From: an uncultured virus (IMG/VR IMGVR_UViG_3300021559_000316)
Lineage: Duplodnaviria; Heunggongvirae; Uroviricota; Caudoviricetes
Length of the DNA stretch: 64,000 bases
Direction: 5' to 3' (one strand)
IMG/VR virus record: IMGVR_UViG_3300021559_000316
Shown here: piece after piece, positions 5,002 to 23,094 of the stretch
Numbering within the stretch: the stretch's first letter is position 1
Layout: each line of letters begins with the position of its first letter
The notes under the pieces: model-generated
What the model saw: only the letters and a program-made list of their open reading frames with translations
The model's database searches: none
Told to the model about the DNA's origin: nothing
Program-made: the position numbers and the translations under genes

Positions 5002-5059
5002 TCGTTACGGGGCAGTTCTACCTCGGTTCCCACCACCTCCGTCGTCGGAGCTGTGCCGT

Positions 5060-5093: not shown

Positions 5094-5096
5094 GGT

Positions 5097-5779: not shown

Positions 5780-5789
5780 GCAGGTAGTC

Positions 5790-8700
5790 GTGGTCGCCGC
5801 GGCGTCGGTATCGCTTCCGCTCCTGCGCGGAACGACCGAAGGCGCCAAGTGCAACGAGTGCCCGTTCTCGATCGGTGGTCGTGCGGCGCGCCCGGTGTGC
5901 TCCGAGCATCCCGCAGAGCCAGCGTGGATCCTCGTCGGTGAGGGTCCCGGCTCGACGGAGGTCGTACTAAATCGTCCTTGGGTCGGGCCCTCGGGCGAGG
6001 TCGTCAACAAGCTGCTCGCGAAGATCGGCCGCGATCGTCGTGAGATTTTCGTCGGCAACGCAACGCTCTGCCAGCCGCCTCGTGGATCGCCAGATCACAT
6101 GCGCGACCTCGCGGCGAAGGCGTGCAAGCCTCGGCTCGACCAAGAGCTGGCGCAGTGGCCCGGTGTTCCCGTGCTCACGCTCGGGGCGGTCGCTGCGCGC
6201 GCTCTGATTCCCCAGGAAACGCTCGACGCGATCGACCCGCCGACGGTCCCCAAGTCGAAGAAACGTAGCCAGAAGGAACGCCAGCGCGCGGAGGCGCGAA
6301 CGCTCGCGCGAGAGGTCCGCGGGCGCGTCAAGGCGATCGAGCAGATCGCCAAGCGCCGGCTCAAGGACAAGATCAAGACGCGCCGTGAGCAGCTAGTCGT
6401 CTCGTGCACGACGCCGCTGCCGGGCACGCCGTATCGGAATCGGAAGCGGCCGACCGTGAGGCAGCTCGACCAGATGATCGAGGACGCGCGCGAGATCCCC
6501 AAGATGAAGCTCCTCGCCGATCGCGAAGCGATCACCGAGTACGAGCTGGGCGACAAGGAACGCGAGATGGCTGCGCAGTACGCGGCGGCGCACCCCAAGC
6601 CGAAGAAGCCGCCCAAGCCCAGGAAGGTGAAGATCACCGACATCATGGGCACGTGCTTCGACGTCGACGTCGACGGCACCGGCGTTCTTCGGCCGCTGAT
6701 CCCGGCGCTGCATCCGGCGGCGCTCTTGCGTGGCGGCGGCGCGACGATCGGTGGCACGCACACGCCCGATCTGGCGTTCGTCAACCTCATCTACGACGCC
6801 GGCAAGGTGAACGCGCTAGCGCAGGGCCACGACATCCGCCTGAAGGTCAACATCGAGACCGAGGTCGTCGACGAGGAGCGCACCGGGCAGCTCTTGCGCG
6901 ACATCATCTACGAAGGCATCGCCGAGGGGATGGTCGCGATCGACCTGGAGACCTACGTCGACGATCCCGAACGCCACCACGCGCTCATGGCGTACGTCGC
7001 ACGGATCAAGGCGATTGGCCTCGCGACCTCGCAGCGTTCGGTGTCGATCCTGTGGAGCAAGACGCCCGCGTGGGCGCAGACGCTCCTGGCGATCGTGCTC
7101 GCGCATCGCGACGTCACCAAGACGTTCCACAACGGCATCTACGATCGCACCGTGCTCACCGCGAACGGCTTTCTGATCGACGGCCCGTGGGAGGACACGC
7201 TGCTCGCGCACCACGCTGCGTTCCCGGGGCTCGCGCATCGCCTGCAGGTGGTGACGTCGCAGTTCTTCGCGACGGCCCCTTGGAAGTGCTTGCGTCGTGA
7301 CGTCGAGATCTTGTTACCGGATCGATCGACCGTGAACATCCGAGACTTCGTGCGCAGGCGGCTACCGGAGGTGTTATCGCTCGAAGACGGGAAGATCGTT
7401 CCGAAGAGGGTGGTCGGGTGGCACGAAGTTCACGTCCCAGGGCAGGAATGGTTATCGATTCGAACGGAGCGCTGCGACAAGAAATACACCCGCGGCCTTG
7501 TTGTAACGCCAGACCATCGCGTGATGACGCAGCGTGGGCTGGTCGAGGCGGATCGACTTGTACCGGGCGATGGCATTGCGATCGACGAGCCTAAGTTCTC
7601 AGAGGATCAGATCTCGGCTGCTGTTGGTACGCTGCTGGGTGACTCGTCGTTGTACGTCAGCCGTGTCTTCCACAAGCGTCCTTGGGACGCGCCACGCGCT
7701 AGCATTCGTGGCGGTCACACGAACAAGGGTCTTCGTGATTGTAAGGTAGCCGCATTGCCACTAGGGACCGTGTGCGGCACCGAACCGGCAGTAGTTCGAC
7801 AGAGCGCCGACGTTACGATCAACGCTGCGGAGTTTTTCCATTACGGGACGAAGTGGGCGTTCCAGTACATGGAGATCGCCAAGCTCGTATACGACGAGAG
7901 CTGGCGTCGCCGTATCAAGCCGGAAGCGCTATCGATGCTCGGGCGCCGTGGGCTTGCCATGATGTACATGGACGACGGAACGCTTCGTCAGGATGGCGCG
8001 TACATCGGTGTCGGGTTCGCCACGAATGGTTTCCTCGATGAAGATGTTGAGCTGTTCACGCAGTGGATTCGTGAGCGTTATGGAGCGGCGACCATCTATC
8101 GGAGCGCGGGGCCTTACTGTCAGCTCTCGGCCGCGGCGTCTCGTAACATGCTCGAAGATCTGCGCGGCTACATCCACCCGTCGAGCCGCTACAAGACGAT
8201 CTACGACGACGCCTACCGAGAGGTTCAAGACGGCGCTGGCGTGTACCACGCCAAGATCACGTCCGTCGATGTTGTGGCCAGGAACGAGAAGCGGCCGGCA
8301 TTGTTCGACTACAGGTATTGCTTGTCCGTCGAGGACACGAAGCTGTTCTTCACGAACTACGGCCTCGTGTCCAACAGCGAGTTCCGAAACGCCGAGGAAA
8401 CGCCCGAGGGGCTCACCGTCTACAACGCCAAGGACACCGGCGCCACGCACGCGCTGCTTCCGCAGCTCCAGTTCTGGGTCAAGAAGACCAAGACCGAGAA
8501 GATCTACGCGCTCGACAAGAAAATGGCCGAGATCGCCTCGAAGATGCACCTAGCGGGCATGCCCGTCAGCCGGGAGATCAACTCCGAGCTGCTCAAGACT
8601 TTCTCGAAGAACGTCGCTGACAGTCGTCGAGCCGTCGAGCACGTCGCCGAGGATCTGAAGCTGCACGAGAAGCTCCTCCACTACCTTGCTCTGCAGCAGG

Positions 8701-9908
8701 CGCAGAAACGCCGTAAGAACGACAGCGAGGTGCTCAACGACCGCTACAGCCAGCGGCTCGACGAGATCAAGTACGACACGAAGTGGAAGTGGAAGATCGG
8801 CGCTGGCAAGCACATCGCCGCGTTGCTTCAAGCGCTCGGTGTTCAGCTCCACCAGGTCACCGCCACCGGGCAGATCTCGACGAAGAAGGACGTTCTCGAA
8901 TCGCTCGTCAACGTCCCGGTCATCCGCGACATTCTAACATTCCGCGAGAACGACAAGTTGTTGACCACATTCGTGTGGCAGCTGTTCGACCGCGAGGACT
9001 CGTCGGGCAACACGATCCAGTACGGCTACGCCGACGAGAACGATCGCGTGCACCCGATCTGGGTCGTGCACAAGATCACCGGCCGCTGGGCAAGCAGCGA
9101 GCCGGTCGTCTCGAACGTGCCGAAGGAGAAGTTCAAGAAGCTCGCCGACGGGACCAAGCAGAGCATCCGGCCCAACCTCCGCCGGCAGATCGTTGCTCCG
9201 CCCGGCCGTATCTTCGTCGGCTTCGACTTCGGCCAGCTCGAAGCGCGGGTGATCGCGCTCATCTCGGGCGATCCGTTCTTGTGTCAGGTGTTCGCCGACG
9301 GGCGCGACATCCACACCGAGTGCGCTCGCGTGGTGTTCACCGGCTTCGACAAGCTTGAGAAGTACGAGCAGAAGCAGGCGCGCGACGTGACGAAAAATTT
9401 TGAGTATGGCTGTTTCTACGGCGGCTCTACGGAGACCTTGTGGAAGACGGTGCTCAAGGCCGGGCACAACATCAAGCAGGTCGATGTTGCCAAGGCGGTC
9501 GCTCTCCTCATGCAGCGTATGCCCGGCGTCGTCGCGTGGCAGCGAAGCAGCGTCGCCGAGGCGTGCCAGCCGCCGTATGAGATCCGCGACTTCCTCTACG
9601 GTCGGCGCCGCACGTTCCCGCTCGGTCAGGTGGAAGCCACCGAAGCGATGAACTTCGGCGTCCAAGCGGCCGGCGCGTCGATCATGAACACCGGCATGGC
9701 GCGAATGGACGACGTACTCCCCGAGTACAAAGAGGCATTCGCGATCGCGCAGATTCACGACGCGGCCGTGTTCGAATGCTGGGAAGACGACGCACCGAAG
9801 CTTGCCGAGGATGTCACGCGCTGCTTCACGCAGAGCTACGAGCGCGACGGCCGGACGATTCCCTTCCCAATTGATGCAAAGATCGGGAAGAGCTGGGCTG
9901 ATGTCTAG
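5790..9908 (+). CDS. polA: family A DNA polymerase with N-terminal family-4 UDG domain, 3'-5' exonuclease and intein
   Basis: UDG: CNEC, LVGEGPG, PWVGPSG, HPAALLR. Exo: DLETY, HNGIYD, YNAKD. Pol: motif A DFGQLEAR, B KNFEYGCFYG, C IHDA. Confidence 0.95.
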   Translation: MVAAASVSLPLLRGTTEGAKCNECPFSIGGRAARPVCSEHPAEPAWILVGEGPGSTEVVLNRPWVGPSGEVVNKLLAKIGRDRREIFVGNATLCQPPRGSPDHMRDLAAKACKPRLDQELAQWPGVPVLTLGAVAARALIPQETLDAIDPPTVPKSKKRSQKERQRAEARTLAREVRGRVKAIEQIAKRRLKDKIKTRREQLVVSCTTPLPGTPYRNRKRPTVRQLDQMIEDAREIPKMKLLADREAITEYELGDKEREMAAQYAAAHPKPKKPPKPRKVKITDIMGTCFDVDVDGTGVLRPLIPALHPAALLRGGGATIGGTHTPDLAFVNLIYDAGKVNALAQGHDIRLKVNIETEVVDEERTGQLLRDIIYEGIAEGMVAIDLETYVDDPERHHALMAYVARIKAIGLATSQRSVSILWSKTPAWAQTLLAIVLAHRDVTKTFHNGIYDRTVLTANGFLIDGPWEDTLLAHHAAFPGLAHRLQVVTSQFFATAPWKCLRRDVEILLPDRSTVNIRDFVRRRLPEVLSLEDGKIVPKRVVGWHEVHVPGQEWLSIRTERCDKKYTRGLVVTPDHRVMTQRGLVEADRLVPGDGIAIDEPKFSEDQISAAVGTLLGDSSLYVSRVFHKRPWDAPRASIRGGHTNKGLRDCKVAALPLGTVCGTEPAVVRQSADVTINAAEFFHYGTKWAFQYMEIAKLVYDESWRRRIKPEALSMLGRRGLAMMYMDDGTLRQDGAYIGVGFATNGFLDEDVELFTQWIRERYGAATIYRSAGPYCQLSAAASRNMLEDLRGYIHPSSRYKTIYDDAYREVQDGAGVYHAKITSVDVVARNEKRPALFDYRYCLSVEDTKLFFTNYGLVSNSEFRNAEETPEGLTVYNAKDTGATHALLPQLQFWVKKTKTEKIYALDKKMAEIASKMHLAGMPVSREINSELLKTFSKNVADSRRAVEHVAEDLKLHEKLLHYLALQQAQKRRKNDSEVLNDRYSQRLDEIKYDTKWKWKIGAGKHIAALLQALGVQLHQVTATGQISTKKDVLESLVNVPVIRDILTFRENDKLLTTFVWQLFDREDSSGNTIQYGYADENDRVHPIWVVHKITGRWASSEPVVSNVPKEKFKKLADGTKQSIRPNLRRQIVAPPGRIFVGFDFGQLEARVIALISGDPFLCQVFADGRDIHTECARVVFTGFDKLEKYEQKQARDVTKNFEYGCFYGGSTETLWKTVLKAGHNIKQVDVAKAVALLMQRMPGVVAWQRSSVAEACQPPYEIRDFLYGRRRTFPLGQVEATEAMNFGVQAAGASIMNTGMARMDDVLPEYKEAFAIAQIHDAAVFECWEDDAPKLAEDVTRCFTQSYERDGRTIPFPIDAKIGKSWADV
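7287..8375 (+). mobile_element. class 1 intein with LAGLIDADG homing endonuclease (363 aa) in the PolA exonuclease domain
   Basis: Begins CLRRD after PWK; block B TPDHRV; GTLLGDSS and MYMDDGT; ends GLVSN before Ser(+1); codon usage visibly more AT-rich. Confidence 0.9.
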
Positions 9909-10681
9909 GCGAGCTGCTGGATGACGAGCTTCTGCGCGTAGGCGTGCGTCAGGTTGCCGTCGGCCGGCGTGATCGTGAGCGCGGTCGCGTTGCCGGCCGG
10001 GTTGATCACCGCGAGCGTTTGGGCGGGGCCCGCCGGCACGGAGACGATCGCATCGACGACGATCGGATGGCCACCCGAGGTCGGGTTCGCGTTGCCGAAG
10101 CAGCTGTTGTCGACGGACGCGCCGTTCAGCTCCAGCTCCAGCTGTCCGGGCTCCGTGGTGTGCACGGTCGCCGTCACGCGGTAGACGCCGGGCAGGAGGG
10201 TGAACGACGAGTTGTCGACCCGAACGCCGGCTCCCGTGTTGGGCCCGGTGCGCGGGAACGGCACGCGGCCGGTTCCGGCCGATGTCTTGACCGCGACCGT
10301 CGCCGCGTAGTCGTTGCCCGACGAGCCGGTGCCCGTCGTGGTGCCGAAGAACATGCTGTACAGGAGCGCGGCGGCCCCCGAATCGACGTCGGTACCATCG
10401 ATGAACGGCTGAGGGTTCAGCACGATGTTTTGTGCGCCGCCGAACTCTCTTTCGATCGTGTGCCAGGACTCGACGAGCACGGACACGTTGAGCGGAAGGA
10501 GCGTCGTGTTCGTCACCGTGACGTTGGTGCCGTCTGCGGCGACGGTGATGCCCTTCGGGTTGGGGCAGATGAAGTCTGGGACCAGCGGAACACCTGCCTC
10601 GTTCAGCAAGTGCGGCTGCGAAACGGTGCCGCCTGCCGGGACTGCCGTGAAGTTCAGGATGTTCTTCAGCTGATTCGCCAT
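9905..10681 (-). CDS. putative virion spike/surface protein with BclA-C (C1q/TNF-like) domain
   Basis: Beta-rich T/G/N/V composition; C-terminal FTLLPGVYRV...GQLELELNG...LVIQQLA resembles BclA C-terminal domains. Confidence 0.6.
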   Translation of the reverse strand: MANQLKNILNFTAVPAGGTVSQPHLLNEAGVPLVPDFICPNPKGITVAADGTNVTVTNTTLLPLNVSVLVESWHTIEREFGGAQNIVLNPQPFIDGTDVDSGAAALLYSMFFGTTTGTGSSGNDYAATVAVKTSAGTGRVPFPRTGPNTGAGVRVDNSSFTLLPGVYRVTATVHTTEPGQLELELNGASVDNSCFGNANPTSGGHPIVVDAIVSVPAGPAQTLAVINPAGNATALTITPADGNLTHAYAQKLVIQQLA

Positions 10682-10758
10682 GCCCTGACGCTATCTCAGC
10701 TTCCGCCGTGCTTCAACATCTCGATGCCGGACCCGACGTGTACGGTCATTTTCTGTCG

Positions 10759-11169
10759 ATGATCCCAACACGCGAGCGCTTGCCGTCCGAGCGTAAGTCG
10801 ATCACGCGAACGTTCCGGCTCGCGTACAAGCACTCCGACGGTCGGCCCGACATGATGCGGTTCTACTTCACGGCGGGCTGCTACGACGACGGCCGCGTCG
10901 GCGAGGTGTTCGTCAAGGCCGACAAGATCGGAACGCTCGCCTCGGGCGCGCTCGACGCCGTCTGCATCATGATGTCGATGCTGCTCCAGCACGGCGTGCC
11001 GCTCGCCGAGATCCTGCCGAAGCTGCGCCACACCCGTTTCGACCCGTCTGGCTTCACCAAGGATCCTGACATTCCAAGCTGCTCGTCGGCGCTCGATTTG
11101 CTGGCTGCTTGGCTAGCTAAGAAGTTCTTGCCAGATCCGATGGCCGTGAAAGGTCAGGACGCCTCGTGA
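10759..11169 (+). CDS. stand-alone TSCPD-type domain (C-terminal part of class II ribonucleotide reductase NrdJ)
   Basis: RERLPSERKSIT...GEVFV...SMLLQHGVPL...RFDPSG...SSALD; start taken at the internal ATG. Confidence 0.85.
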   Translation: MIPTRERLPSERKSITRTFRLAYKHSDGRPDMMRFYFTAGCYDDGRVGEVFVKADKIGTLASGALDAVCIMMSMLLQHGVPLAEILPKLRHTRFDPSGFTKDPDIPSCSSALDLLAAWLAKKFLPDPMAVKGQDAS

Positions 11170-11648
11170 CGCGCAGAGGACATCGTACTTCGCCAGAAGA
11201 ACTGTTCTGCGCGAAGATCGTGATCGCACCAAACGGGTGCCATCTGTGGACGGCTGGCCGCACACTAGATGGGTACGGCAAATTCAGCATCACGCTCGAC
11301 GAGCGAAAGCCGTCTGGTCAGCTGAAGCAGAAGGTCGTTCGTGCGCATCGCTACGCGTTCTTCTTGAAGCACGGCCGTTGGCCAAACGAGAACGCGCTAC
11401 ATACGTGTGATGAGCCCCTGTGCGTGAACGCTGATCATCTAGAAGACGGCGATCAGAGCAAGAACGTCACCGATTGTGCTCTACGTGGGCGCCACGGCAA
11501 CAAACAAGCGACGCCGGAACTAGTGCGTGAGTGGCGCAATCGTGTGGCTGACGGGGAGCGGATCATCGACATCGTTCGCACTGCGAACGTCGCCTACCAC
11601 GTCGTCCGTCATGCGGTTCGTGGGCAGACTTGGAAGGCCGTTACATGA
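11166..11648 (+). CDS. HNH (His-Me finger) homing endonuclease
   Basis: GCHLWT, GYGKF, RAHRYA, LHTCDEPLCVNADHL, C-terminal HTH-like tail; lower GC. Confidence 0.9.
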   Translation: MTRRGHRTSPEELFCAKIVIAPNGCHLWTAGRTLDGYGKFSITLDERKPSGQLKQKVVRAHRYAFFLKHGRWPNENALHTCDEPLCVNADHLEDGDQSKNVTDCALRGRHGNKQATPELVREWRNRVADGERIIDIVRTANVAYHVVRHAVRGQTWKAVT

Positions 11649-12268
11649 GCGCCTTCTCCGTCGTGGTTGCTGATCCACCGTGGTCGTTCAACGACAAGCT
11701 TCCCGGTGAAGGCCGTGGCGCGGAGAAGCACTACCGCGTGATGACCATCGACGAGATCTGTGCGATGGCCATTCTTCCTGCACATCGCAGTGATCGCTTG
11801 ATGCTGTCGCTCTGCGGTCAGAGCGTACCGATCGCCGACGACGCCATCTTGTTCTTGTGGCGCGTTGCTTCACAGGTCGAAGAAGCGTGTCACGTCGTGC
11901 GAGCATGGGGCTTCACAGCGAAGAGCGAGATCGTCTGGAAGAAGCTGACGAAGTATGGCAAGCGCGCGTTCGGGATGGGTCGAACCGTTCGTATGGAACA
12001 CGAGATCTGCATGATCGCGACACGTGGTCGACCAACGATCAAGGTTAGGAACGTGCGTTCCGTGTTCGAGGCTCCGCTGGGCCGGCACTCGGAGAAGCCA
12101 CAAGCGTTCTACGAGATCGTAGAACAGCTTGTAGACGGCCCCTACCTGGAGCTGTTCGCTCGCCACGTGCGACCTGGTTGGGCCGTCTTGGGCGACGAGA
12201 TCGACGAGCGCGCGATCAACTCGAAGGCCGATCGTCGCGGCGACGTCGACGAGGTCATCATCACGTGA
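11645..12268 (+). CDS. MT-A70 family N6-adenine methyltransferase
   Basis: VVADPPW, LFLW, WGF, HEICMIATRG, HSEKP, YLELFAR, WAVLGDE. Confidence 0.9.
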   Translation: MSAFSVVVADPPWSFNDKLPGEGRGAEKHYRVMTIDEICAMAILPAHRSDRLMLSLCGQSVPIADDAILFLWRVASQVEEACHVVRAWGFTAKSEIVWKKLTKYGKRAFGMGRTVRMEHEICMIATRGRPTIKVRNVRSVFEAPLGRHSEKPQAFYEIVEQLVDGPYLELFARHVRPGWAVLGDEIDERAINSKADRRGDVDEVIIT

Positions 12269-12570
12269 GCGTTTACGTCGATAGCTCCATCTACGGCTAC
12301 GGCCGCATGGTGATGTGCCACATGATCGCGGACACGCCCGACGAGCTGCATGCGATGGCCGATCGCATCGGCGTCGCGCGACGCTGGTATCAGCAACCGC
12401 CCAAGGCCAGCTTCTGGCACTACGACATCGCGAAGAGCAAGCGTGCGCTCGCGGTCGCGGCCGGTGCGATCGAGTGTGGTCGCAACGAGTTCGTGGTCGC
12501 GCTTCGTCGCATTCGTGAGTCCGGCACGTACCCGAAGGCTGCGTGGCGGGCCGTCATGCGAGACGCTTGA
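12265..12570 (+). CDS. DUF4031 family protein
   Basis: VYVD...CHMIADTPDELHAMADRIG...HYDI...RALAVAAGA; GTGA coupling. Confidence 0.85.
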   Translation: MSVYVDSSIYGYGRMVMCHMIADTPDELHAMADRIGVARRWYQQPPKASFWHYDIAKSKRALAVAAGAIECGRNEFVVALRRIRESGTYPKAAWRAVMRDA

Positions 12571-12595
12571 CGGACCGTAGCTGTAAGATTAGTCC

Positions 12596-12760
12596 ATGCC
12601 CTACGTCCTGATCATCGCGCTCGTTGGTGGCCTCCTCATGTACCTCCTGTGCTCGAACGCCAAGGCGGCCGAGATCGGTCGCATGCTGTTCTTCGCGGCG
12701 ATCCTGGGCTTGCTGATCGCGCTCGCACCGAGCACGGTGCGCATGCTCCACGGCGGCTAA
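12596..12760 (+). CDS. 54-aa two-TM membrane protein (holin-like or virion membrane protein)
   Basis: MPYVLIIALVGGLLMYLLCSNAKAAEIGRMLFFAAILGLLIALAP...; TAAGAT-N6-ATG promoter. Confidence 0.7.
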   Translation: MPYVLIIALVGGLLMYLLCSNAKAAEIGRMLFFAAILGLLIALAPSTVRMLHGG

Positions 12761-12793
12761 CTAGGATCTAGTTAGATCCGGTACGCTGTAGCC

Positions 12794-13312
12794 GTGCTCG
12801 TCAGCGATCGGCTGAACAAGATCCCGGCGCGGCTCGTGTTCACGACCGGGCTCGATCCGTTCCAGCTGCTCATCAACTTCACGACGAAGTGCCCGGCGTC
12901 GCACGCAGCGATCGGCATCGACGATCATCTGCTGCACGCGTACGAGGACGGCGTGCTGTTCGAGCCGCGCGACAAGTGGCTCGGCGAGCGCAAGCAGAAG
13001 CTCATCGCCGAGTTTCAGATCCTGCCCGACGTCACCGACGGGATCCACGCCGCGATGGGGCACGTCGGCAAGAAGTACGACGTCGCGCACGTGTTCAAGA
13101 TCGGCCTGCTGCGCCTGCTCAAGCCGGCCTTGTGGTCGCTTGGTCCCGATGCGCCGGACAAGTTCACGTGCGCTCGGTTCGTGACGATGATCGATCCGTA
13201 CGGCGACGCGATCCCCGAGTGGCGGGACATCTGGCGCGAGGCGATCGTGCCCGCTGATCTCCTCGACGTGGCGATGACGGGTGGAAGCTTTTTTCGTCTC
13301 TACCCGACGTGA
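12794..13312 (+). CDS. permuted papain-like (NlpC/P60, YiiX/YebB-type) hydrolase
   Basis: SHAAI (His), VGKKYD, FTCARFV (Cys), IVPADL; His precedes Cys. Confidence 0.8.
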   Translation: MLVSDRLNKIPARLVFTTGLDPFQLLINFTTKCPASHAAIGIDDHLLHAYEDGVLFEPRDKWLGERKQKLIAEFQILPDVTDGIHAAMGHVGKKYDVAHVFKIGLLRLLKPALWSLGPDAPDKFTCARFVTMIDPYGDAIPEWRDIWREAIVPADLLDVAMTGGSFFRLYPT

Positions 13313-13349
13313 GTTGACGATGGCCCATTTCTTGTGGGAATCTCCTTCC

Positions 13350-13463
13350 ATGGCAAGACGCAAGAGTTTGAAGTCGAAGCGCGCCGGCAAGCACTGCAAG
13401 CACGGGTTCCGCAAGGGCTCGGCGAAGTGCCTCAAGCGCGCTCGTCGCCGCCGCCGACGCTAG
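13350..13463 (+). CDS. 37-aa protamine-like basic protein
   Basis: MARRKSLKSKRAGKHCKHGFRKGSAKCLKRARRRRRR; TTGACG-N18-GAATCT-N6-ATG upstream. Confidence 0.7.
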   Translation: MARRKSLKSKRAGKHCKHGFRKGSAKCLKRARRRRRR

Positions 13464-13547
13464 CCAGCGTTCGCTGATGCGTGTGGCGCGCTCCGTCAGA
13501 CGTAGTGCCCTCACGGCTAGCGGAGGCACTACAATGAAGGAGCGGCG

Positions 13548-13868
13548 ATGCATCAGGTAACGCAGTGGCAGCAGACGGGGGTGTACGACCCGTACAACCC
13601 GAACCAGATCATCCGGGAGCCGAACAACATCGGCATCCCGGGTGGTGCGTACGGGTCGTTCTACTTCAACAAGGTCCCGACGACCGTCACCCAGGTGCTC
13701 GGTGGGCTCCGCGGCTCGATGTCGGGCCTGCCGGTGTTCCTGCAGGTCGGCATCGTCGGGAGCCTCGCGGCGGTCGCCGGATACTACTCCTGGCGATTTT
13801 TGGGCCCCAAGCTCGGCGTCAAGGGCATGTCCGGGCTCGGCGGTCGCCGTCGTCGTCGGCGGCGCTGA
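13548..13868 (+). CDS. single-TM protein with MSGLGG-R7 tail
   Basis: SD GAAGGAG; hydrophobic LPVFLQVGIVGSLAAVAGYYSW; ends GMSGLGGRRRRRRR. Confidence 0.8.
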   Translation: MHQVTQWQQTGVYDPYNPNQIIREPNNIGIPGGAYGSFYFNKVPTTVTQVLGGLRGSMSGLPVFLQVGIVGSLAAVAGYYSWRFLGPKLGVKGMSGLGGRRRRRRR

Positions 13869-14185
13869 TGGCTGGTCCAGCACGAAGGTATCGACGCCGT
13901 TCGCCGGGTGACGACCGCGCAGCGAGCCCATCGGCAGCCAACGTCGAAGCTGCGACGAGGCTCGGTTGTCGAGACGCGGTCAAAGGCCGTAAGAATCCTC
14001 ACAAGCCTGAAGCGCGCGGGTTCGTCTCCGCGTACCGCGAGGGCTATCGGATCTGCGAGGCGATCTATACCGGCCGCGAGCGCTTCCTCAAGTCCGACGA
14101 GAAGCGCGTGATGCACAAGCTCAAGCTCGAAACCGAAGTACAGCACGTGCCGCTTTCTGGTACGCGCCGCCGAAGGCGTCGTTAG
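13868..14185 (+). CDS. basic protein with LSGT-R6 tail
   Basis: TGATG coupling; MAGPARRYRRR...HVPLSGTRRRRRR. Confidence 0.7.
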   Translation: MAGPARRYRRRSPGDDRAASPSAANVEAATRLGCRDAVKGRKNPHKPEARGFVSAYREGYRICEAIYTGRERFLKSDEKRVMHKLKLETEVQHVPLSGTRRRRRR

Positions 14186-14188
14186 ATC

Positions 14189-14527
14189 ATGGCCAAGCGC
14201 ATCGACGATAGCCACCACGCGTTCAAGCGCGGCGCTCGGCTCGGCCCCGGGCCGAGGAAGCGCCAGCTCTACGAGGAGCGCAACTGGGAGTGCACGAAGG
14301 GCAAGAACACGAGCACCGAGTACGTGCAGATCTGCCGCTACGTCGGCGACGATCGCACGAAGCGCGGCAAGCGCGTCAAGATCAAGCGCAAGAAGTCGGC
14401 GAAGAAGGCGTACAACAAGATCTACCGCGCGTGGCAGAAGCGAAACGCTCGCGTGCAAGCGTTCCAGTCGCGCCCGCGGAAGTCGGGCTACCGCTGCCGC
14501 AAGACTCCCGTCGCGAAGTGCAAGTAG
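14189..14527 (+). CDS. highly basic Lys/Arg/Cys protein (putative DNA-condensing core protein)
   Basis: Very K/R-rich with four Cys; good codon usage. Confidence 0.75.
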   Translation: MAKRIDDSHHAFKRGARLGPGPRKRQLYEERNWECTKGKNTSTEYVQICRYVGDDRTKRGKRVKIKRKKSAKKAYNKIYRAWQKRNARVQAFQSRPRKSGYRCRKTPVAKCK

Positions 14528-14540
14528 AGGAGGATCGCTA

Positions 14541-14813
14541 ATGCCCGCACTCATGACGCTTCAGGGGCCGAATCTCGGCAACCTCGGTTGGATGGAGCGC
14601 ACCAACGTGACGCCGCCGCTCTCCGGTGCTGGCGGATCGATCCTGCTCTCGCCGATCGTCATCCTCCTCATCGGCGGTGTCGTCGGCGGCGTGCTCGCGC
14701 AGAAGAACGTGCACCCGTTCCGCGCGCTGCGCAGCAAGGCCGCCAGCATCCGGGGCCACCAGCGCATGCAGCAGTCGCGCACCAAAGCGCTATCGGGGCG
14801 TCGCCGACGGTAG
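14541..14813 (+). CDS. single-TM protein with LSG-R4 tail
   Basis: SD GAGGAGG; LSGAGG before TM ILLSPIVILLIGGVVGGVLA; ends ALSGRRRR. Confidence 0.8.
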   Translation: MPALMTLQGPNLGNLGWMERTNVTPPLSGAGGSILLSPIVILLIGGVVGGVLAQKNVHPFRALRSKAASIRGHQRMQQSRTKALSGRRRR

Positions 14814-14834
14814 CCGTGATAGGCTGAAGCGGCG

Positions 14835-16289
14835 ATGTTACTCGCGGGCAATCCGGTCGCCGGCTTCGGTGTGTTCCGAAGCTTTCCGGGACAGGGTGCC
14901 GTCGCGACAACGCCGGGGCAGCTCGTCGCCTCGCCGCCCGACGTCGTGTTCGCTGGTGGCTACCAGGTAGGTCCGTTCGTCCTACCGACGCTGCCGTACG
15001 AGGACTACGACCCGGGGACCGGCGCGCCGACGGCGGGAAGCACGTTCGAAGACGGCACGCTCGACGCGATCGCCGCATGCTCGACGAACCAGCCGGCCGG
15101 GAGCGTGGCGTTCAAAGGCTCGGGGCTGGTGATGACCATCACCGACCCGTCGCAGATCTCGCAGGCGCTGCGCGATCAGATCGCCAAGGTAATCTTCGAT
15201 CCGCAGCTCGTGCATCCAGCGGCGGTCGCTCGCGGGCAGAACTTCTTCGGCAACTACTGGTTCAACGATTCGATGGGGACGCCGGACCCGTGGTGGAAGG
15301 ATCGCGGCCGGTTCTCGAACGAGCCCGGCTACGACATGACCAAGCCGGCGTGGTGGAACCAGCCGAAGCTTCAGCAGAGCTACCGCGACTGGATCACCGC
15401 GCTCGGGATCGGGCCCGACGAGAACTACAACCTCTCGATGATCTCGATCGCCGCGTCCGGCGTCGAGCCGTGGAACACGTACGGCCCGATCATGGGCGGT
15501 ATCCCGGTTGCGCAGTATCGCGGCCCACTCCTGCAGGTCCCGGGCGCTCCAAATGTCGTCCCGGGCGCTCCAAATGTCCCGGTCGGCGCGACCGCCGCCG
15601 ATCGCGGGCTCTCGATCTGGGATCCGTCGAACTGGACGGCGACCGACAACCCCGACGTGTGGGATCCCAACGATCCGACGCGGCCGTGGATGGAGTGGTC
15701 GATCTTTCTGCAGCTCCGCGCGTGGGGCAACAAGTACGACTACGAGAAGGTCGGCGGCGGCGTGCTCAGCTGCAGCTCGCAGTGCGTTCCTGTCCCGTAC
15801 ACGCCGGTCGACAGCTACTTCGTGCTCGACGTCTACTTCGTCCCGACGAGGAACTGGACGAACTTCGGCAAGAACTCGGGCTGCTTCGATCCGTTCGCGC
15901 TCCTGCCGAAGCTCCTCCTGGGAGAGATCAGCTGGGTGTTCGGCGCGCTGACGCAGCTCGTCTGCGACATCCTCACCAACCCCGCCGCGCTCGCCGCGCT
16001 CGCGGTGACGACCGCGGCGCAGACCGCACCGCCGTCGCAGAAGGGCAAGCCAACGCAGCCGCAGGTCGCTGCGGCGTCCGCACAGCTCCTCGCGCAAGCC
16101 GCCAAGCAGTGCACGATCACGTGCCCCGACGGCACGACGAAGGCGGCGACACAGGCGCAGTGTCCGACGTTGCTTCCCGTGCCGACCGTCGGCACGACCG
16201 GGATTCCGTGGAGCGTCGTGATCGTGGGCGCGCTCGCGCTCGCGGCGGCACTGCTGCTCAGCTCACCTCGACCGAAAGAAGCAACCTGA
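14835..16289 (+). CDS. large C-terminally membrane-anchored protein (putative virion or surface protein)
   Basis: Pro/Gly/Trp-rich body, TCPDG module, C-terminal TM WSVVIVGALALAAALLL. Confidence 0.8.
   Translation: MLLAGNPVAGFGVFRSFPGQGAVATTPGQLVASPPDVVFAGGYQVGPFVLPTLPYEDYDPGTGAPTAGSTFEDGTLDAIAACSTNQPAGSVAFKGSGLVMTITDPSQISQALRDQIAKVIFDPQLVHPAAVARGQNFFGNYWFNDSMGTPDPWWKDRGRFSNEPGYDMTKPAWWNQPKLQQSYRDWITALGIGPDENYNLSMISIAASGVEPWNTYGPIMGGIPVAQYRGPLLQVPGAPNVVPGAPNVPVGATAADRGLSIWDPSNWTATDNPDVWDPNDPTRPWMEWSIFLQLRAWGNKYDYEKVGGGVLSCSSQCVPVPYTPVDSYFVLDVYFVPTRNWTNFGKNSGCFDPFALLPKLLLGEISWVFGALTQLVCDILTNPAALAALAVTTAAQTAPPSQKGKPTQPQVAAASAQLLAQAAKQCTITCPDGTTKAATQAQCPTLLPVPTVGTTGIPWSVVIVGALALAAALLLSSPRPKEAT
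15537..15578 (+). repeat. perfect 21-bp tandem duplication (VPGAPNV x2)
   Basis: GTCCCGGGCGCTCCAAATGTC twice, in frame. Confidence 0.9.
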
Positions 16290-16657
16290 TGGCGATCGGA
16301 CCAGATCGATTTATCGTGCTCGGCCGCAAGGGCAAGCGGCGCACGTTCACCAACTGGGAAGACGCCGTCGCCGTCGCCAAGAAGTGTTCGCGCACCAAGC
16401 GCGGCACGATCTGCCGCGTGCTCCACGGCTATCCCGGCAACGAGGTTGCGGTCCTCGAATGCAAGCAGAACCGCTGCGGCGCGCCGCACCCGAAGTCGCC
16501 GCGTGGGCTGCACGGCCGCAAGAAGCGCCGCCGCGGCCTCGGCAACGGCAAGTACGAGCCGCCTCCGAGCTGGCACGAACGCAAGGGCCCACCGCCCGGC
16601 GTGCCGATCATTCCTTCGAACCTGAAGGGTCGGAAGAGCCGGAAGCGGCGCCGGTAG
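16289..16657 (+). CDS. basic Cys-containing protein with LxG-basic tails
   Basis: TGATG coupling; GLHGRKKRRRGLG and terminal NLKGRKSRKRRR. Confidence 0.75.
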   Translation: MAIGPDRFIVLGRKGKRRTFTNWEDAVAVAKKCSRTKRGTICRVLHGYPGNEVAVLECKQNRCGAPHPKSPRGLHGRKKRRRGLGNGKYEPPPSWHERKGPPPGVPIIPSNLKGRKSRKRRR

Positions 16658-16670
16658 AAAGGACACGACG

Positions 16671-17072
16671 ATGCTAGCTCTCGGTCATGGTCACGGCGGC
16701 GGTGGTCACCACGGAGGTGGCGGTCATCATCACGGTGGTGGCGGTCGCGGTTGGTGGGCTCCCGACGTCTACGTCGTGCAGACCGACTGCTGCGGCACCG
16801 TCGCGCAGAATCCCGTGATCGCGTCCGACGGGCAGATCTACTGCAACGCCGCGTGCGTTCCAGCCGGTCTCACCGTCGTCGGCGCCGCCGGCCTTCACGG
16901 GCTCGCCGGCTCGTTCATGCCGTCACTGCCGACGATCTTGGGCGTCGCCGCCGTCGCGCTCGTCGGGTTCTGGGGCTACCGCAAGCTCCGTCCGAAGAAG
17001 CGCGTCCTCGGTGCGCCGCCGCTCTGTGACGATCCGAAGTTCGCGAAGAAGCACCCGCGCGCTTGTCGCTAG
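16671..17072 (+). CDS. Gly/His-rich single-TM protein with a Kazal-like Cys motif
   Basis: SD GAAAGGA; GHGHGGGGHH, CC...PVIASDGQIYCNAAC, TM ILGVAAVALVGFWGY then basic tail. Confidence 0.75.
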   Translation: MLALGHGHGGGGHHGGGGHHHGGGGRGWWAPDVYVVQTDCCGTVAQNPVIASDGQIYCNAACVPAGLTVVGAAGLHGLAGSFMPSLPTILGVAAVALVGFWGYRKLRPKKRVLGAPPLCDDPKFAKKHPRACR

Positions 17073-17302
17073 AGATCGACATCGGGCACGGCATCACGAT
17101 CAAGTGGGCCGACGAAGGTCGGACGCTGATGTGGAAGCACCCCAAGTGTCGAGCGTGGTGGTGGCTCGCGTTCAAGCCGGATCCAAGGTCCACCGGTCAC
17201 GTGCTCGCGTCGCGTGAGCCGCTGACGATCATCGGCTCGTTGCTCTGCACGGACTGCAACACGCACGGCACCATCGAGAATGGCCGCTGGGTCCCGGCGT
17301 AG
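17063..17302 (+). CDS. small Cys/His protein (DUF6527-like)
   Basis: PLTIIGSLLCTDCNTHGTIENGRW. Confidence 0.55.
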   Translation: MSLEIDIGHGITIKWADEGRTLMWKHPKCRAWWWLAFKPDPRSTGHVLASREPLTIIGSLLCTDCNTHGTIENGRWVPA

Positions 17303-17485
17303 CTACCGCCTCGGGCGCTTCGGGATCGAGCGGTGGCCGGCTCGCCGGCACATCGAGTAGCCGATCGCGACGGCCTGCATGCGTTGCTTCTTCGTCCGGC
17401 ACTTGCCGCGCTTCTTGTGGCAGTGCCTCGCGATCTCCTCGGAGATGCACGCTCGTGCGGCGGCCGACGGTCGACGTTTCGCCAT
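17303..17485 (-). CDS. 60-aa basic protein
   Basis: K/R/C-rich with QAVAIGYS; TGA-TAGCCT-N6-ATG promoter. Confidence 0.7.
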   Translation of the reverse strand: MAKRRPSAAARACISEEIARHCHKKRGKCRTKKQRMQAVAIGYSMCRRAGHRSIPKRPRR

Positions 17486-17497
17486 GCCGCTAGGCTA

Positions 17498-18493
17498 TCA
17501 CTCCACGTACTCGGCGTCTTCGACGTCGTCGGGCGCGTTGATGTAGCCGCGCCAGCGTGACCGCGTCGACGCGAGGCGCTGTTCGCGTGCTTCCTTGATG
17601 AGCTTGGTGATCGGCCCGACGAGCATGCCACGGCGACCGCGCTCGTTGCCGTACGCACGCGCCAGCTCCTTGTCCGACGGCGGATCGGCCTCGGTGCTCG
17701 CCCACGCCTCGGCGCGGCGGGCGAACTCCTGCGGCGTTCGGCTCTCCTTGGCGATCACCGCGAGCATGCTCGGGCCATCGATCTCGGCGAACCCGAGCGA
17801 CTTGCGCCGCGACCAGAACCAGTACGCGGCGACGCCTGCGCCGAGGATGCCGACCGCGATCGCGATCCACAGGAGCGCGCGCTGCGTGCTCGGGAACACC
17901 GCGAGCACCTGCGGCGCGAGCTGCGTCGCGAAGTCGGACGCGCCCTGCGGCTGGAAGTGCACGCCGTCGCCCGCGCGGTTGTCCGTCGACGATAGCGGCC
18001 GAGCATCGATCACGTTGCCGCCGAACACGTCGTTCAGCATCGCGTAGACCTGATCGACCTTGGCGTTCAGGTTGGCGTCGGCGAAGATCGGCGGCCCGAT
18101 CGCCAGAATCTCGGTCGCCGTCGGGAACGAGTCGCGGATCTGCGCCATCGCCGCTGGATCGATCGCGCCCGAGTCGGCGTCGTTGGTGCCGAGCATGACG
18201 ATGACCTTGGTCGGCGCGAATTGCTGGTCGCTGGCGATTAGGCTCGCCGGGTCGTTCTGCTGAAAGCGTGCGTGCGGCGTGTTCCAGAAGTTGTGCGCCG
18301 AGCGGCCGACGTTGGCGTCGATCCGGACGGCTGTCGCGCCGGCCTCCGCGATCATGCTCGCGAGCAGATCGCCTGGCGCTGACGCCAAGCGGTCGGAGCC
18401 CGCGTCGACGTCCCAGATCTCGGGGTCACCGTCGCTGCCGTGGTGCGACAGCGAGTCTCCAAATAGGAGGACGCGCTCGCCGCTCACGTTCAT
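17498..18493 (-). CDS. SGNH/GDSL hydrolase with membrane anchor
   Basis: FGDSLS, GRS, LGTND, DGVHF; TM LLWIAIAVGILGAGVAAYWFW. Confidence 0.88.
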   Translation of the reverse strand: MNVSGERVLLFGDSLSHHGSDGDPEIWDVDAGSDRLASAPGDLLASMIAEAGATAVRIDANVGRSAHNFWNTPHARFQQNDPASLIASDQQFAPTKVIVMLGTNDADSGAIDPAAMAQIRDSFPTATEILAIGPPIFADANLNAKVDQVYAMLNDVFGGNVIDARPLSSTDNRAGDGVHFQPQGASDFATQLAPQVLAVFPSTQRALLWIAIAVGILGAGVAAYWFWSRRKSLGFAEIDGPSMLAVIAKESRTPQEFARRAEAWASTEADPPSDKELARAYGNERGRRGMLVGPITKLIKEAREQRLASTRSRWRGYINAPDDVEDAEYVE

Positions 18494-18545
18494 GGAGCTA
18501 GCCTATCACGCACGACTGCCGGACCGCTCTGGTAGGATGCTTCGA

Positions 18546-18944
18546 GTGCCGTACGCCGTAATCTCCCCGGATGGCGACGTCGTCGATCTCGTGCCCGACG
18601 TCGACGATGCGATCGACGTCGCCTCGCACATCGCGCCGATGGTCTCCGTCGAGAACGGTCCTAGCGACGCTGGCATGTCGGGCCTCGGTGAACTCGGCGC
18701 GGTCAACCGGAAGCGGCCCGAGCACGCGCTCCATGGCAACCCGTTGTCGCAAGATGACCACGAAGGATCTCGTCGCTCGCACCGAGCACGAGGTCGGCCG
18801 CAAGCTCACCACGGCCGAGCGCGCCGGCCTCGATCTCATGCCTCCGCAGTACGATTGCGCTACGCCGCGGGCGCAGTCGAGCGGTGGGAGCGGAAGAGCA
18901 AGAGGCCGATCCCAACTGCAGCGGCCACCGCGAGCGCGCCGTAG
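18546..18944 (+). CDS. acidic-then-basic protein with MSGLG motif; possible frameshift near 18740
   Basis: TGG-TAGGAT-N7-GTG; codon quality moves to the frame of 18733..18948 after about 18740. Confidence 0.5.
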   Translation: MPYAVISPDGDVVDLVPDVDDAIDVASHIAPMVSVENGPSDAGMSGLGELGAVNRKRPEHALHGNPLSQDDHEGSRRSHRARGRPQAHHGRARRPRSHASAVRLRYAAGAVERWERKSKRPIPTAAATASAP

Positions 18945-19792
18945 ATGAGCGTCTGAGGATCGAGTCCGAAGAACGTCGGTGTCGCCACGACGCCGCCGTC
19001 GGGCGGGATCGGCGATGGCGGCGTGAGCGGCGGCTGGTCGGTCGGCGTCACCGTCAAGCCCGTCGACGAGCCCGGTGCTGGCTGCGCGCCCGTGGGGCAC
19101 AGCGACGGGTCCGACGCCGTCGAGCCGTCGGGGCACGTGACGCCGCCGCCACCGGGTGCCGTCGTCGTCGTCGGCTGTGGGCAGGACGTGCCGATGGGAA
19201 CCTGCGTGCCGTCGGGGCACGTGATCGTCGGCGGCACGTACCACTGCGCGGCGCCCGCATTGTCGGGAAGGCTCAGGTACGTCTCCAGCCAGACGATCAT
19301 CTGCTGCGCGTTCGCGGCGAGCCACGCCGGCTGCGTGCAGCACGAGATCGCGACTTGGATGTCGCCCGACATCCCTCCGCACGACGGGTCGCTAGCGCAC
19401 GGCGGGTTCACGCCCGCGATCGCGACCGCCTGCGTGACCGTCGACGCGTCGATCACGGCGTTGAGCGGCATGACGTAGGTCGAGCCCTGAACTTGGCCGT
19501 AGAGCATCTGCGCGGCCTGGTTCAGGAGCCACTGCAGGTGACGGTACGTGTTCTGGACGTTCGGATCGCCGCTCGTGATCGAGCCCGAGCCCGTCTGGGT
19601 GAACCCCTGCGGGCCGATCACGGGTCCTGTGCTGGTGCCCGAGCCCGTCCGGATCGGCCCGGTGCTCACCGGCCCAGACCCGACTACCATCATCGGCATG
19701 AACGTCTGCGTGCTCTGTGGCGGCGTCGGGCCCTGTGGGATCGCGGGCGAGGCCCCGCGTGGCAGCATCCCGAGCCCGGTGAGCGTGAGCAT
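18860..19792 (-). CDS. Pro/Thr/Gly-rich C-terminally anchored membrane protein
   Basis: N-terminal MLTLTGLG, two TCPDG...CP modules, TM LIYGALAVAAAVGIGLLLF. Confidence 0.8.
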   Translation of the reverse strand: MLTLTGLGMLPRGASPAIPQGPTPPQSTQTFMPMMVVGSGPVSTGPIRTGSGTSTGPVIGPQGFTQTGSGSITSGDPNVQNTYRHLQWLLNQAAQMLYGQVQGSTYVMPLNAVIDASTVTQAVAIAGVNPPCASDPSCGGMSGDIQVAISCCTQPAWLAANAQQMIVWLETYLSLPDNAGAAQWYVPPTITCPDGTQVPIGTSCPQPTTTTAPGGGGVTCPDGSTASDPSLCPTGAQPAPGSSTGLTVTPTDQPPLTPPSPIPPDGGVVATPTFFGLDPQTLIYGALAVAAAVGIGLLLFRSHRSTAPAA

Positions 19793-19807
19793 GCTCCGAG
19801 CCTATCA
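19793..19807 (-). promoter_or_regulatory. extended -10 leaderless promoter TGA-TAGGCT-N6-ATG (representative of a repeated motif)
   Basis: Same arrangement at 18494-18508(-) and 17486-17500(-); at 14816-14834(+) with a 9-nt spacer; TAnnnT-N6 at 10682-10693(-), 12584-12595(+), 12782-12793(+). Confidence 0.7.
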
Positions 19808-20002
19808 CGCTTCGTACTTCCTCAGCTGGTAGTCGTCGGGCACGGCCTTGAAGAAGCGTTCGGCGTGATCGCCCGAGTAGACCTGGTTGAGCGCGGCGAC
19901 GATCGTGTCTACGTAGTACGCGTCGACGTGGTCGGCGATGAGCTTGTCGTCCGAGGTGCCGAGCTGCTCGCGATCGAAGTTGTCGACGGAGATGATCTTC
20001 AT
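19805..20002 (-). CDS. 65-aa hypothetical protein, copy 1 of a duplicated gene
   Basis: MKIISVDNFDREQLG...; 58/65 aa identical to 31923..32120. Confidence 0.8.
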   Translation of the reverse strand: MKIISVDNFDREQLGTSDDKLIADHVDAYYVDTIVAALNQVYSGDHAERFFKAVPDDYQLRKYEA

Positions 20003-23047: not shown

Positions 23048-23094
23048 GATCGCGAGTCTACGCTGGTCGCCATAGTTGCACATATGTTGGCGCG

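Follow-up and report, generated by a model that had tools for sequence, protein, structure and literature searches.

What kind of particle is built by a large bacterial virus in which the usual head, packaging and tail genes are not recognizable? The question is raised by a stretch of 64,000 nucleotides from an uncultured virus (IMG/VR record IMGVR_UViG_3300021559_000316; the whole 64-kb stretch is hereafter called the window), and in particular by its span 9905–19792, in which an earlier note, made from the sequence alone, had seen structural-type genes pointing to a membrane-containing rather than a tailed virion. The window has a G+C content of 62–70% throughout, looks phage-like along its whole length, and derives from an uncultured high-GC virus of bacteria, one of a lineage with genomes of ~78 to at least 138 kb. 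Judging by gene content, this virus is probably a member of a group of tailless viruses, unusually large and not described so far, because in complete-looking relatives no genes for a head, portal, terminase or tail could be detected and two jelly-roll proteins of coat type are encoded. Within the window, we see about an even chance that positions 13314–17302 form the core-and-membrane cassette of a motor-less, membrane-containing particle with a shell of two jelly-roll proteins.

Relatives of the virus and the search for tailed-phage hallmarks

With the C-terminal 502 amino acids (aa) of the window's DNA polymerase as the query, six IMG/VR loci were found at 60–86% identity, namely L001 (86%), L003 (74%), L004 (71%), L005 (62%), L006 (61%), and L002 (60%). 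Relatives defined by the polymerase have at least eight genes syntenic with the window, and the gene order from helicase to polymerase is common to the relatives and the window, as are the gene families represented at 13548 and 14189. Three relatives are used throughout: G001 (77,539 bp, with a 127-bp terminal repeat), G002 (121,351 bp, linear), and G003 (137,914 bp, with a terminal repeat of 123 bp, rated 100% complete by CheckV). By their terminal repeats, G001 and G003 look complete. Other contigs of 77.9–80.4 kb carry the same proteins, and a length of ~78–80 kb recurs across samples, in some cases with terminal repeats. A megablast search of positions 9000–20000 against 50,697 phage records gave no match.

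The non-replication genes common to G001, G002, and G003 constitute a conserved block on the minus strand. In G001 this block ends at a gene for a 534-aa Walker-A protein, immediately upstream of the SNF2 helicase gene. Since the block abuts the helicase in G001, the block of the window would, by synteny, begin just left of position 1, i.e., just upstream of the SNF2 helicase at 122–1699. This fits the proviso of the earlier note that the core morphogenesis genes might lie outside the window. A side feature of the block is a conserved 699-aa coiled-coil protein rich in Gln, Ala, and Glu (G001 62615–64714, minus strand), which could be a scaffold or a tape-measure-like ruler.

The same note had recognized no terminase, portal, HK97 capsid, tape measure or sheath, and none was found in the window by PHROGs (223 open reading frames (ORFs), i.e., 30+77+116, comprising all of at least 135 aa on both strands and the called smaller ones) or by Pfam (107 ORFs). 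The only "terminase large subunit" matches in the window, by three PHROGs (E 5e-37), fall on 59050–61539 and cover only residues 53–420 of its product. The candidate was rejected, as the matched stretch is an intein (PDB DnaB and gp41-1 inteins, E 1e-24; Pfam LAGLIDADG_3) that also matches "HNH endonuclease" and "DnaB-like helicase" features of other phages, while the remaining 406 residues, the C-extein, have no match. As the terminase match is an intein artefact, the absence of a terminase from the window holds. The intein is inserted directly after a DDAPDGF motif and represents a trap for automatic annotation; the extein itself has GHKL motifs and a weak likeness to RIIA of G001 (BLASTP E 0.008 over 47 aa). 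The large ORFs that might be taken for a tape measure, portal or capsid gene are likewise accounted for: the 1372-aa ORF at 5790–9908 is a UDG–PolA fusion with an intein, and the 525-aa and 341-aa ORFs are the SNF2 helicase and a PD-(D/E)XK nuclease, respectively.

The absence extends to the relatives. PHROGs scans of 182 ORFs of G001 (90 called and 92 in gaps) and 150 ORFs of G003, with a Pfam scan of 83 G001 ORFs, detected no terminase large subunit, true portal, HK97 capsid, sheath, tube, tape measure or baseplate, and no match to tail genes (tube, sheath, tape measure, baseplate) was obtained by PHROGs in the window, G001 or G003. In six-frame searches with the families Phage_capsid, TerL_ATPase, Terminase_6N, and Phage_portal, each matched 0 of the three records G001–G003, whereas control genomes were matched. 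The same holds for the packaging ATPase family FtsK_SpoIIIE (PF01580; 0 of 3 relatives, controls matched; Pox_A32 and other models not included). The only conserved Walker-A proteins are a Sak4-like protein and the 534-aa protein beside the helicase, and no small conserved Walker-A protein was seen. The 534-aa protein was rejected as a packaging ATPase on its motif order, by which we take it to be an SF3/D5-type helicase. What G001 and G003 do encode, by PHROGs and Pfam, includes RIIA/RIIB, a GH25 endolysin, an M23 peptidase, ThyX, dCMP deaminase, endonuclease VII, RNA ligase, AlkB, and an integrase.

Candidate coat and receptor-binding proteins

The most conserved member of the block is a 236-aa protein, with 75–79% identity across G001–G003, a value above that of the polymerase. 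It has 472 homologues at E ≤0.001, none of them named, on contigs of up to 178 kb, and no match in 50,697 GenBank phage records or Pfam family of its own; its 129 remote homologues likewise led to no capsid or other informative Pfam family. Its structure model is a beta sandwich (pLDDT 63.9), the best VIA match of which is chain 6oj0_Z of Sulfolobus polyhedral virus 1 (SPV1; Z 7.3, root-mean-square deviation 3.3, 122 residues aligned), followed by satellite panicum mosaic virus (Z 7.2) and also by PBCV-1, PRD1, FLiP, and HHIV-2. In BFVD, six matches have E ≤0.001, and the three named ones, of which two come from uncultured viruses, are single-jelly-roll capsid proteins.

A second protein, of 176 aa, is encoded 2–3 kb from the 236-aa gene, and its model is a jelly roll (pLDDT 90.9). 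The top matches are capsid chains of EhV-201 (Z 7.8) and PBCV-1 (Z 7.4), the others including HCIV-1 (6h9c_D, Z 6.9, 127 aligned), SPV1 (6.4), PRD1 P3 (6.0), and P23-77 VP17 (5.7). PRD1 P3 is matched by the 236-aa model over one of its two jelly rolls (Z 5.4, chain 254–386) and by the 176-aa model over a longer stretch (Z 6.0, chain 172–390); the values for FLiP are Z 5.5 and 6.3, respectively. Atlas leads to the PM2 P2 and PRD1 P3 families score 0.76–0.78. Each of the two modelled proteins looks like a single rather than a double jelly roll. Prediction of a complex of the two gave a score of 0.00, which is no verdict either way. Small proteins with C-terminal membrane helices are abundant around the two genes.

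In the window itself, the candidate surface protein is the product of 9905–10681. As the earlier note had suggested, its C-terminus resembles BclA-C/TNF-like beta proteins: it matches Pfam BclA_C (PF18573; E 8.9e-9, residues 122–240), at 35.7 bits, though, where the curated cut-off is 38. A further match is to PHROG 30509, "collagen like minor tail" (E 1.5e-4). The N-terminal 97 aa recur in three paralogues of G003 (E 5e-28 to 2.5e-14), as well as in a protein of 760 aa from an element in Gemmatimonadota described below, followed in these relatives by a Gly-rich linker and unrelated C-termini. Atlas neighbours of the N-terminal domain are phage fibre-type clusters, at lead strength only. Such an architecture suggests the modular build of receptor-binding proteins and would suit a tail fibre or a vertex spike equally.

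Several observations weigh against a tailless particle. The CheckV completeness of G001 is 73%. Absence by profile hidden Markov models, on which the hallmark negatives rest, is not absence of a fold, and a divergent HK97 fold is possible, e.g., in the 329-aa product of G001 51138–52127; structure models were made for the 236-aa and 176-aa proteins only. The former model is of mediocre confidence. All fold matches have Z <8, "middling" by the tool's own scale, and the match lists include non-viral jelly rolls (nucleoplasmin, GOLD, PHM) along with tailed-phage cement, turret, and fibre proteins (KHP40, Pam1, HFTV1, 7-7-1); Foldseek against PDB at E ≤0.001 yielded 0 matches for the 236-aa protein and 1 for the 176-aa protein. 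Hence the jelly-roll fold is supported, and homology to any particular capsid family is not. A PHROG "portal protein" match (E 3.5e-9, weak) falls on G001 38623–39612; as a portal this gene was rejected, since the match covers the same residues as Pfam NUDIX.

The main alternative, which draws its strength from the limits of profile searches and from the fibre-like protein, is that of a tailed phage (Caudoviricetes) with structural genes diverged beyond PHROGs and Pfam, in which the jelly rolls would be decoration, cement or fibre proteins, the product of 9905–10681 a tail fibre, and the membrane and basic cluster non-structural. In its favour are the replication, recombination, RIIA/RIIB, endolysin, and integrase genes, all of tailed-phage type, the BclA_C domain, the "collagen like minor tail" PHROG and the N-domain neighbours, which are typical of tail fibres, the cement and turret proteins among the fold matches, and the Atlas label of Uroviricota for neighbouring clusters. 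There is also a weak match of the PHROG "terminase small subunit" (E 6e-5) to the helix-turn-helix domain encoded by G003 88915–89499, inside the conserved block. What makes a tailed phage unlikely in our judgment is that hallmark matches are zero in 182 ORFs of G001, in 150 of G003, and in six-frame searches with five families, that G001 has no unexplained conserved protein of 350–500 aa for the role of terminase, portal or HK97 capsid, and that the 236-aa protein outranks the polymerase in conservation, which would be odd for a decoration protein.

The operon at 13314–17302 and its surroundings

The earlier note had treated 9905–19792 as one structural module. This does not hold, as about one-quarter of the span (10708–12570) consists of DNA-metabolism genes. 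The coherent unit within it is a tightly packed plus-strand operon at 13314–17302, whose genes from 13548 to 17302 overlap or abut (Table 1). The hydrophobic helices reported for seven proteins of the span are present in all seven by Kyte-Doolittle analysis (19-residue window, ≥1.6; the threshold and the gene calls are our own and crude). Transmembrane proteins are concentrated here: such helices are encoded by 7 of the 13 genes in 12596–19792, compared with 3–4 of the 88 in the rest of the window (one-sided Fisher test, p = 1e-5 to 2.6e-5). The basic proteins have been confirmed too and increased in number: six consecutive products between 13350 and 16657 have pI values of 11.0–12.0, three of which (13350–13463, 13868–14185, 16289–16657) were missing from the earlier list.

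The operon opens with a promoter-like motif, TTGACG-N14-T(G/A)TGGGA, ahead of a mini-ORF for a protamine-like peptide of 37 aa that has no hydrophobic stretch. Both came to light when the gap ahead of the 13548 gene was aligned with the corresponding site in three relatives. Exactly one copy of the motif is present in each of the window, G001, G002, and G003, always ahead of the mini-ORF, against an expectation of 0–0.1 per genome in shuffled sequence; a sigma-70 consensus scan did not call it. As the motif is single-copy in each genome, it provides no link of co-regulation to the coat genes, and the idea of a general late promoter common to them was rejected. Homologues of the mini-ORF (30–39 aa, two conserved Cys) occupy the same site in G001, G002, G003, and L004. 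An inverted repeat follows the mini-ORF of the window, and a long perfect hairpin with a T-rich tail lies downstream of those of G002 and G003.

Among the genes that follow, the 13548 family is conserved in G001 (63% identity), G002 (47%), G003 (42%), and L004, all members ending in G-x-Arg5-6. The product of 14189–14527 is 63% identical to that of G001 6913–7254 and 55% identical to a protein of L004. The 484-aa product of 14835–16289 has no relative in the viral contig collection and no Pfam or PHROG match, and the products of 13868–14185 and 16289–16657 lack PHROG matches. A C-terminal tail, L/S-x-G-(x)-Arg4-7, recurs on clustered neighbours at the syntenic site of all four genomes, with gene ends at 13868, 14185, 14813, and 16657 in the window, 6275, 7577, and 7897 in G001, 88212 and 90079 in G002, and 4701, 5189, 5512, and 6977 in G003; the frame filter used for these tails missed 16657 of the window and 4701 and 5189 of G003, and listed one probable shadow frame (33877). 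The L-x-G that precedes the Arg run might serve as a signal for processing or for targeting to the particle. Another recurrent element, the Cys loop C(P/A)DG(T/S)-x7-9-CP before a membrane anchor, was seen in three of ~660 proteins scanned: those of 14835, 18860 (twice), and G001 12355.

The cassette of the window is tied to the jelly-roll particle type mainly because the mini-ORF and the 236-aa gene co-occur in all four elements searchable for both: G001, G002, G003, and an element of Gemmatimonadota. The 236-aa gene is found in four GTDB genomes, and one copy lies in a closed chromosome of a Gemmatimonadota metagenome-assembled genome (MAG), in an element of ~31 kb with the conserved block, the fibre N-terminal domain, and two protamine-like mini-ORFs in tandem; ordinary host genes begin ~1 kb past its right end. 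Neither jelly-roll gene, to be sure, is within the window, and the link to them, made through homology of the replication module and of the cassette, would be loosened if such modules move between viruses, as they can. The same MAG chromosome (G004) has a related polymerase gene at 2,236,662–2,239,820 (42–58% identity, 1503-aa open frame). As it lies 1.48 Mb from the jelly-roll element, two related elements, or exchanged modules, may be involved.

We propose the following scheme for the particle. The 37-aa peptide and the soluble Arg-tailed proteins would condense the DNA, and those Arg-tailed proteins that have a membrane helix would anchor it to a lipid layer. Around this core, the two jelly-roll proteins, presumably encoded just outside the window, would then form a shell. 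The particle so formed would resemble the motor-less virus SPV1 with its nucleoprotein core. The 9905–10681 product would serve as an exchangeable receptor-binding fibre or spike, and the two minus-strand tail-anchored proteins and the lipase as accessory membrane or surface proteins. The sequence features, their conservation and synteny, the failure to detect hallmark genes, and the jelly-roll fold of both models are observed; the presence of these proteins in the virion, the existence of a membrane, and the motor-less entry of DNA are what we infer. The tailless, membrane-containing virion of the earlier note is thus partly supported, by inference only: in its favour, the lack of hallmarks reaches two complete-looking relatives and two jelly-roll proteins are encoded amid small anchored proteins, whereas the assignment of the membrane and basic proteins to the virion stays at the level of a suggestion.

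Small membrane proteins with charged C-termini also fit holins, and 12596–19792 could be read as a lysis or host-surface cassette (holin/antiholin-like proteins, a LysB-like lipase, superinfection-exclusion or lysogenic-conversion proteins), whatever the type of the particle. Its location between the replication genes and the tyrosine integrase at 21932–23083 would suit such a role, as would the one or two helices and very basic C-termini of its small products, the GDSL lipase with a helix, and the poor, accessory-like conservation of most members among the relatives. The mini-ORF and the 13548 family are nevertheless core rather than accessory genes, the same Arg tail occurs on the helix-free soluble products of 13868–14185 and 16289–16657, and the 37-aa peptide has no hydrophobic stretch at all. 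Moreover, no endolysin is detectable in the 64-kb window by Pfam or PHROGs, and the lysis genes of G001, for a GH25 endolysin (35.0–35.9 kb) and a conserved three-helix protein (37.9–38.3 kb), are ~29 kb from its cassette. A lysis or surface cassette is quite unlikely on this evidence. Very unlikely is a non-autonomous element, i.e., a large integrative or plasmid-like element or a satellite using a helper capsid or another route: while the window has two tyrosine integrases, one relative is integrated in the Gemmatimonadota MAG chromosome, and no packaging ATPase of any kind was found by the TerL_ATPase, Terminase_6N, and FtsK_SpoIIIE searches, the relatives encode an endolysin, RIIA/RIIB, and endonuclease VII and a strongly conserved jelly-roll pair amid membrane proteins, contigs of ~78–80 kb recur in different samples, some of them with terminal repeats, and the Pfam and PHROGs scans yielded no conjugation genes.

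The remaining membrane proteins of the span have partial counterparts in the relatives. The product of 12596–12760 is 50% identical to the 52-aa product of G003 110900–111058. On the minus strand, that of 17498–18493 matches Lipase_GDSL (PF00657) at 31.7 bits, above the gathering cut-off of 23.6, which predicts a lipase, and its C-terminal 120 aa are 42% identical to the product of G001 10380–10907 (minus strand), a protein with a helix at its N-terminal end and a Pfam match of EncFtn-like type (encapsulated ferritin; E 7.8e-10). In the copy of the window, a GDSL lipase is fused to the N-terminal side of a conserved membrane-anchored domain. The CPDG loop of the 18860–19792 product also occurs in that of G001 12355–13050; the strand of this gene was chosen by length and context, codon-position GC being ambiguous there.

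Outside the span, positions 1–12570 form a replication and DNA-modification module by Pfam and PHROGs, comprising genes for the SNF2 helicase, a PD-(D/E)XK nuclease, a Sak4-like ATPase, a DUF669 protein, and the 1372-aa fusion of a UDG-like domain with a family-A polymerase, followed by the TSCPD, HNH, MT-A70, and DUF4031 genes. The polymerase is split by a LAGLIDADG intein of ~340 aa (roughly residues 520–862); the polymerases of G001–G003 are the same fusion without this intein. The right half of the window contains mainly small genes without assigned function, together with those for Mom, a C5 methylase, a receiver domain, a RuvB-like ATPase, and the intein-containing GHKL ATPase; the true start of the RuvB-type ORF is probably internal. 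The two integrase genes are 17 kb apart, and the Phage_zn_bind_8 finger of the first recurs in 26661–27839 and 47207–47563. No tRNA genes were found in the window.

Table 1. Features of the 64-kb window discussed in the text
Feature	Position	Strand	Basis or remarks
DNA polymerase	5790–9908	+	UDG-superfamily domain (residues 40–145) fused to family-A polymerase (Pfam)
Fibre/spike-like protein, 258 aa	9905–10681	-	N-terminal domain of ~97 aa, short linker, BclA_C/TNF-like C-terminal domain
Four non-structural genes: TSCPD-domain protein, HNH endonuclease, MT-A70 methyltransferase, DUF4031	10708–12570	+	Pfam, PHROGs
54-aa protein, two membrane helices (residues 1–24, 23–51)	12596–12760	+	Kyte-Doolittle
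Promoter-like motif TTGACG-N14-T(G/A)TGGGA	13314–13340	+	Conserved ahead of mini-ORF
37-aa protamine-like peptide	13350–13463	+	51% Arg+Lys, two Cys, ends RRRRRR
106-aa protein, one membrane helix (58–79)	13548–13868	+	C-terminus GMSGLGG and seven Arg
105-aa soluble basic protein	13868–14185	+	Ends PLSGT and six Arg
112-aa basic protein	14189–14527	+	33% Arg+Lys, pI 11.0
90-aa protein, one membrane helix (26–55)	14541–14813	+	C-terminus ALSG and four Arg
484-aa acidic protein, C-terminal membrane anchor (452–480)	14835–16289	+	CPDGT-x9-CP Cys loop ahead of anchor
122-aa basic soluble protein	16289–16657	+	Ends in NLKGRKSRKRRR; final residues KRRR
133-aa His/Gly-rich protein, one membrane helix (80–101), and 79-aa Cys-containing protein	16671–17302	+	Close of operon
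GDSL lipase domain, membrane helix (204–228), conserved C-terminal domain	17498–18493	-	Lipase_GDSL
310-aa Pro/Thr/Gly-rich acidic protein, C-terminal anchor (280–302)	18860–19792	-	Two CPDG-x-CP loops
Tyrosine integrase	21932–23083	-	C-terminal Phage_zn_bind_8 finger
Cpn10-like protein	29913–30245	+	Among small genes without assigned function
Exonuclease VII small-subunit-like protein	35575–35796	+	Among small genes without assigned function
Tyrosine integrase	39689–40666	-	Second integrase, 17 kb from first
Mom-like DNA-modification protein	46146–46949	+	Among small genes without assigned function
Response-regulator receiver domain	54220–54864	+	Among small genes without assigned function
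RuvB-type ATPase	57275–59053	+	RuvB_N E 4e-50, lid and winged-helix domains, residues 263–570 of long ORF
GHKL-type ATPase with LAGLIDADG intein (residues ~68–423)	59050–61539	+	Outside span; ELIANAWDA motif, C-terminal HELGH

Comparison with known viruses and implications

The likeness to tectiviruses and corticoviruses that the earlier note had proposed was not borne out: no hallmark of these viruses was found, there is no clear double-jelly-roll match, and FtsK_SpoIIIE is found in 0 of 3 relatives. What the present lineage has in common with Tectiviridae and Corticoviridae are small membrane proteins, jelly-roll capsid folds, and a TNF-like knob behind a conserved N-terminal domain, an arrangement that we take to be comparable to the P5 spike of PRD1; its genomes, however, are 5–10 times larger. 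Viruses with an inner membrane and two single-jelly-roll proteins, i.e., HCIV-1, HHIV-2, and P23-77 (PDB 6H9C, 6H82, 3ZMN), have small genomes and a packaging ATPase gene beside the coat genes. They resemble our lineage in having two small jelly-roll coat-type proteins encoded close together, with fold matches of Z 6.9 for HCIV-1, 5.4–6.4 for HHIV-2, and 5.7 for P23-77 VP17, and differ from it in the packaging ATPase, which was not found here by the six-frame FtsK_SpoIIIE search of three relatives. In the sections of Yutin et al. (2018; PMC5894146) concerned with prokaryotic double-jelly-roll viruses, genomes of 7–18 kb are given and the FtsK-HerA packaging ATPase is named as their most prominent common gene.

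By analogy, the nearest architecture would be the motor-less nucleoprotein-core type of SPV1 (Portogloboviridae) rather than that of PRD1 or PM2. SPV1, according to its ICTV profile (PMC8459092), has a shell of two single-jelly-roll proteins over a lipid layer and a basic protein that condenses the DNA into a nucleoprotein core; its genome of ~20 kbp, its archaeal hyperthermophile host and a presumably non-lytic way of life are described in the same source, and the word ATPase is absent from the text of this profile. The likeness consists in chain 6oj0_Z (PDB 6OJ0), which ranks first among the VIA matches of the 236-aa protein (Z 7.3) and also matches the 176-aa protein (Z 6.4), and in the candidate DNA-condensing proteins, i.e., the 37-aa peptide and the Arg-tailed proteins. 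On the other hand, the genomes here are 78 to more than 138 kb long, bacterial lysis genes are present, and a bacterial genome harbours one integrated copy. Similarity at the sequence level is absent, and with Z values this low homology to SPV1 cannot be claimed.

Two further comparisons concern single proteins. The P6.9 protein of baculoviruses and the core proteins of adenoviruses are described in PMC6163548 and PMC5899202 as tiny and rich in Arg and Lys, with the role of condensing the viral DNA so that it can be encapsidated. The 37-aa peptide (51% Arg+Lys) is like them by description only; those viruses are eukaryotic. The fibre-like protein shares with the tail fibres of BclA_C type (PHROG 30509) a BclA_C/TNF-like C-terminal domain and a modular build with exchangeable C-termini, and differs in that 9905–10681 encodes no collagen repeats, has no tail genes around it, and scores under the Pfam cut-off.

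On these grounds, a bolder proposal can be put forward tentatively, and we consider it possible though on balance doubtful: widespread bacterial viruses of 78 to more than 138 kb may package their DNA without a motor, the peptide and the L-x-G-x-polyArg proteins condensing the genome onto a lipid vesicle that the jelly-roll shell then encloses. Such a lineage would be a bacterial counterpart, 4–7 times larger, of the archaeal SPV1 build. In the open full-text literature, with supplements and non-open journals outside the search, we found no bacterial jelly-roll or tailless virus above 70 kb, no protamine-like phage protein or other bacterial-virus counterpart of the peptide, and no paper describing this virus family.

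Prokaryotic jelly-roll viruses have been described as small, and among the viruses of bacteria, large genomes are regarded as exclusive to tailed phages. A tailless lineage of 78 to more than 138 kb would, if true, break the size rule for jelly-roll viruses. It would do so with a combination of tailed-phage-like replication, integrases, RIIA/RIIB, and an endolysin with protamine-like core proteins and no detectable packaging ATPase. The family is abundant in public metagenomes, as seen from the 472 homologues of one coat-type protein, against 0 among the GenBank phage records. If the reading is right, these viruses would offer a bacterial model for motor-less, condensation-driven encapsidation, and they would bear on the question of how jelly-roll viruses grew large.

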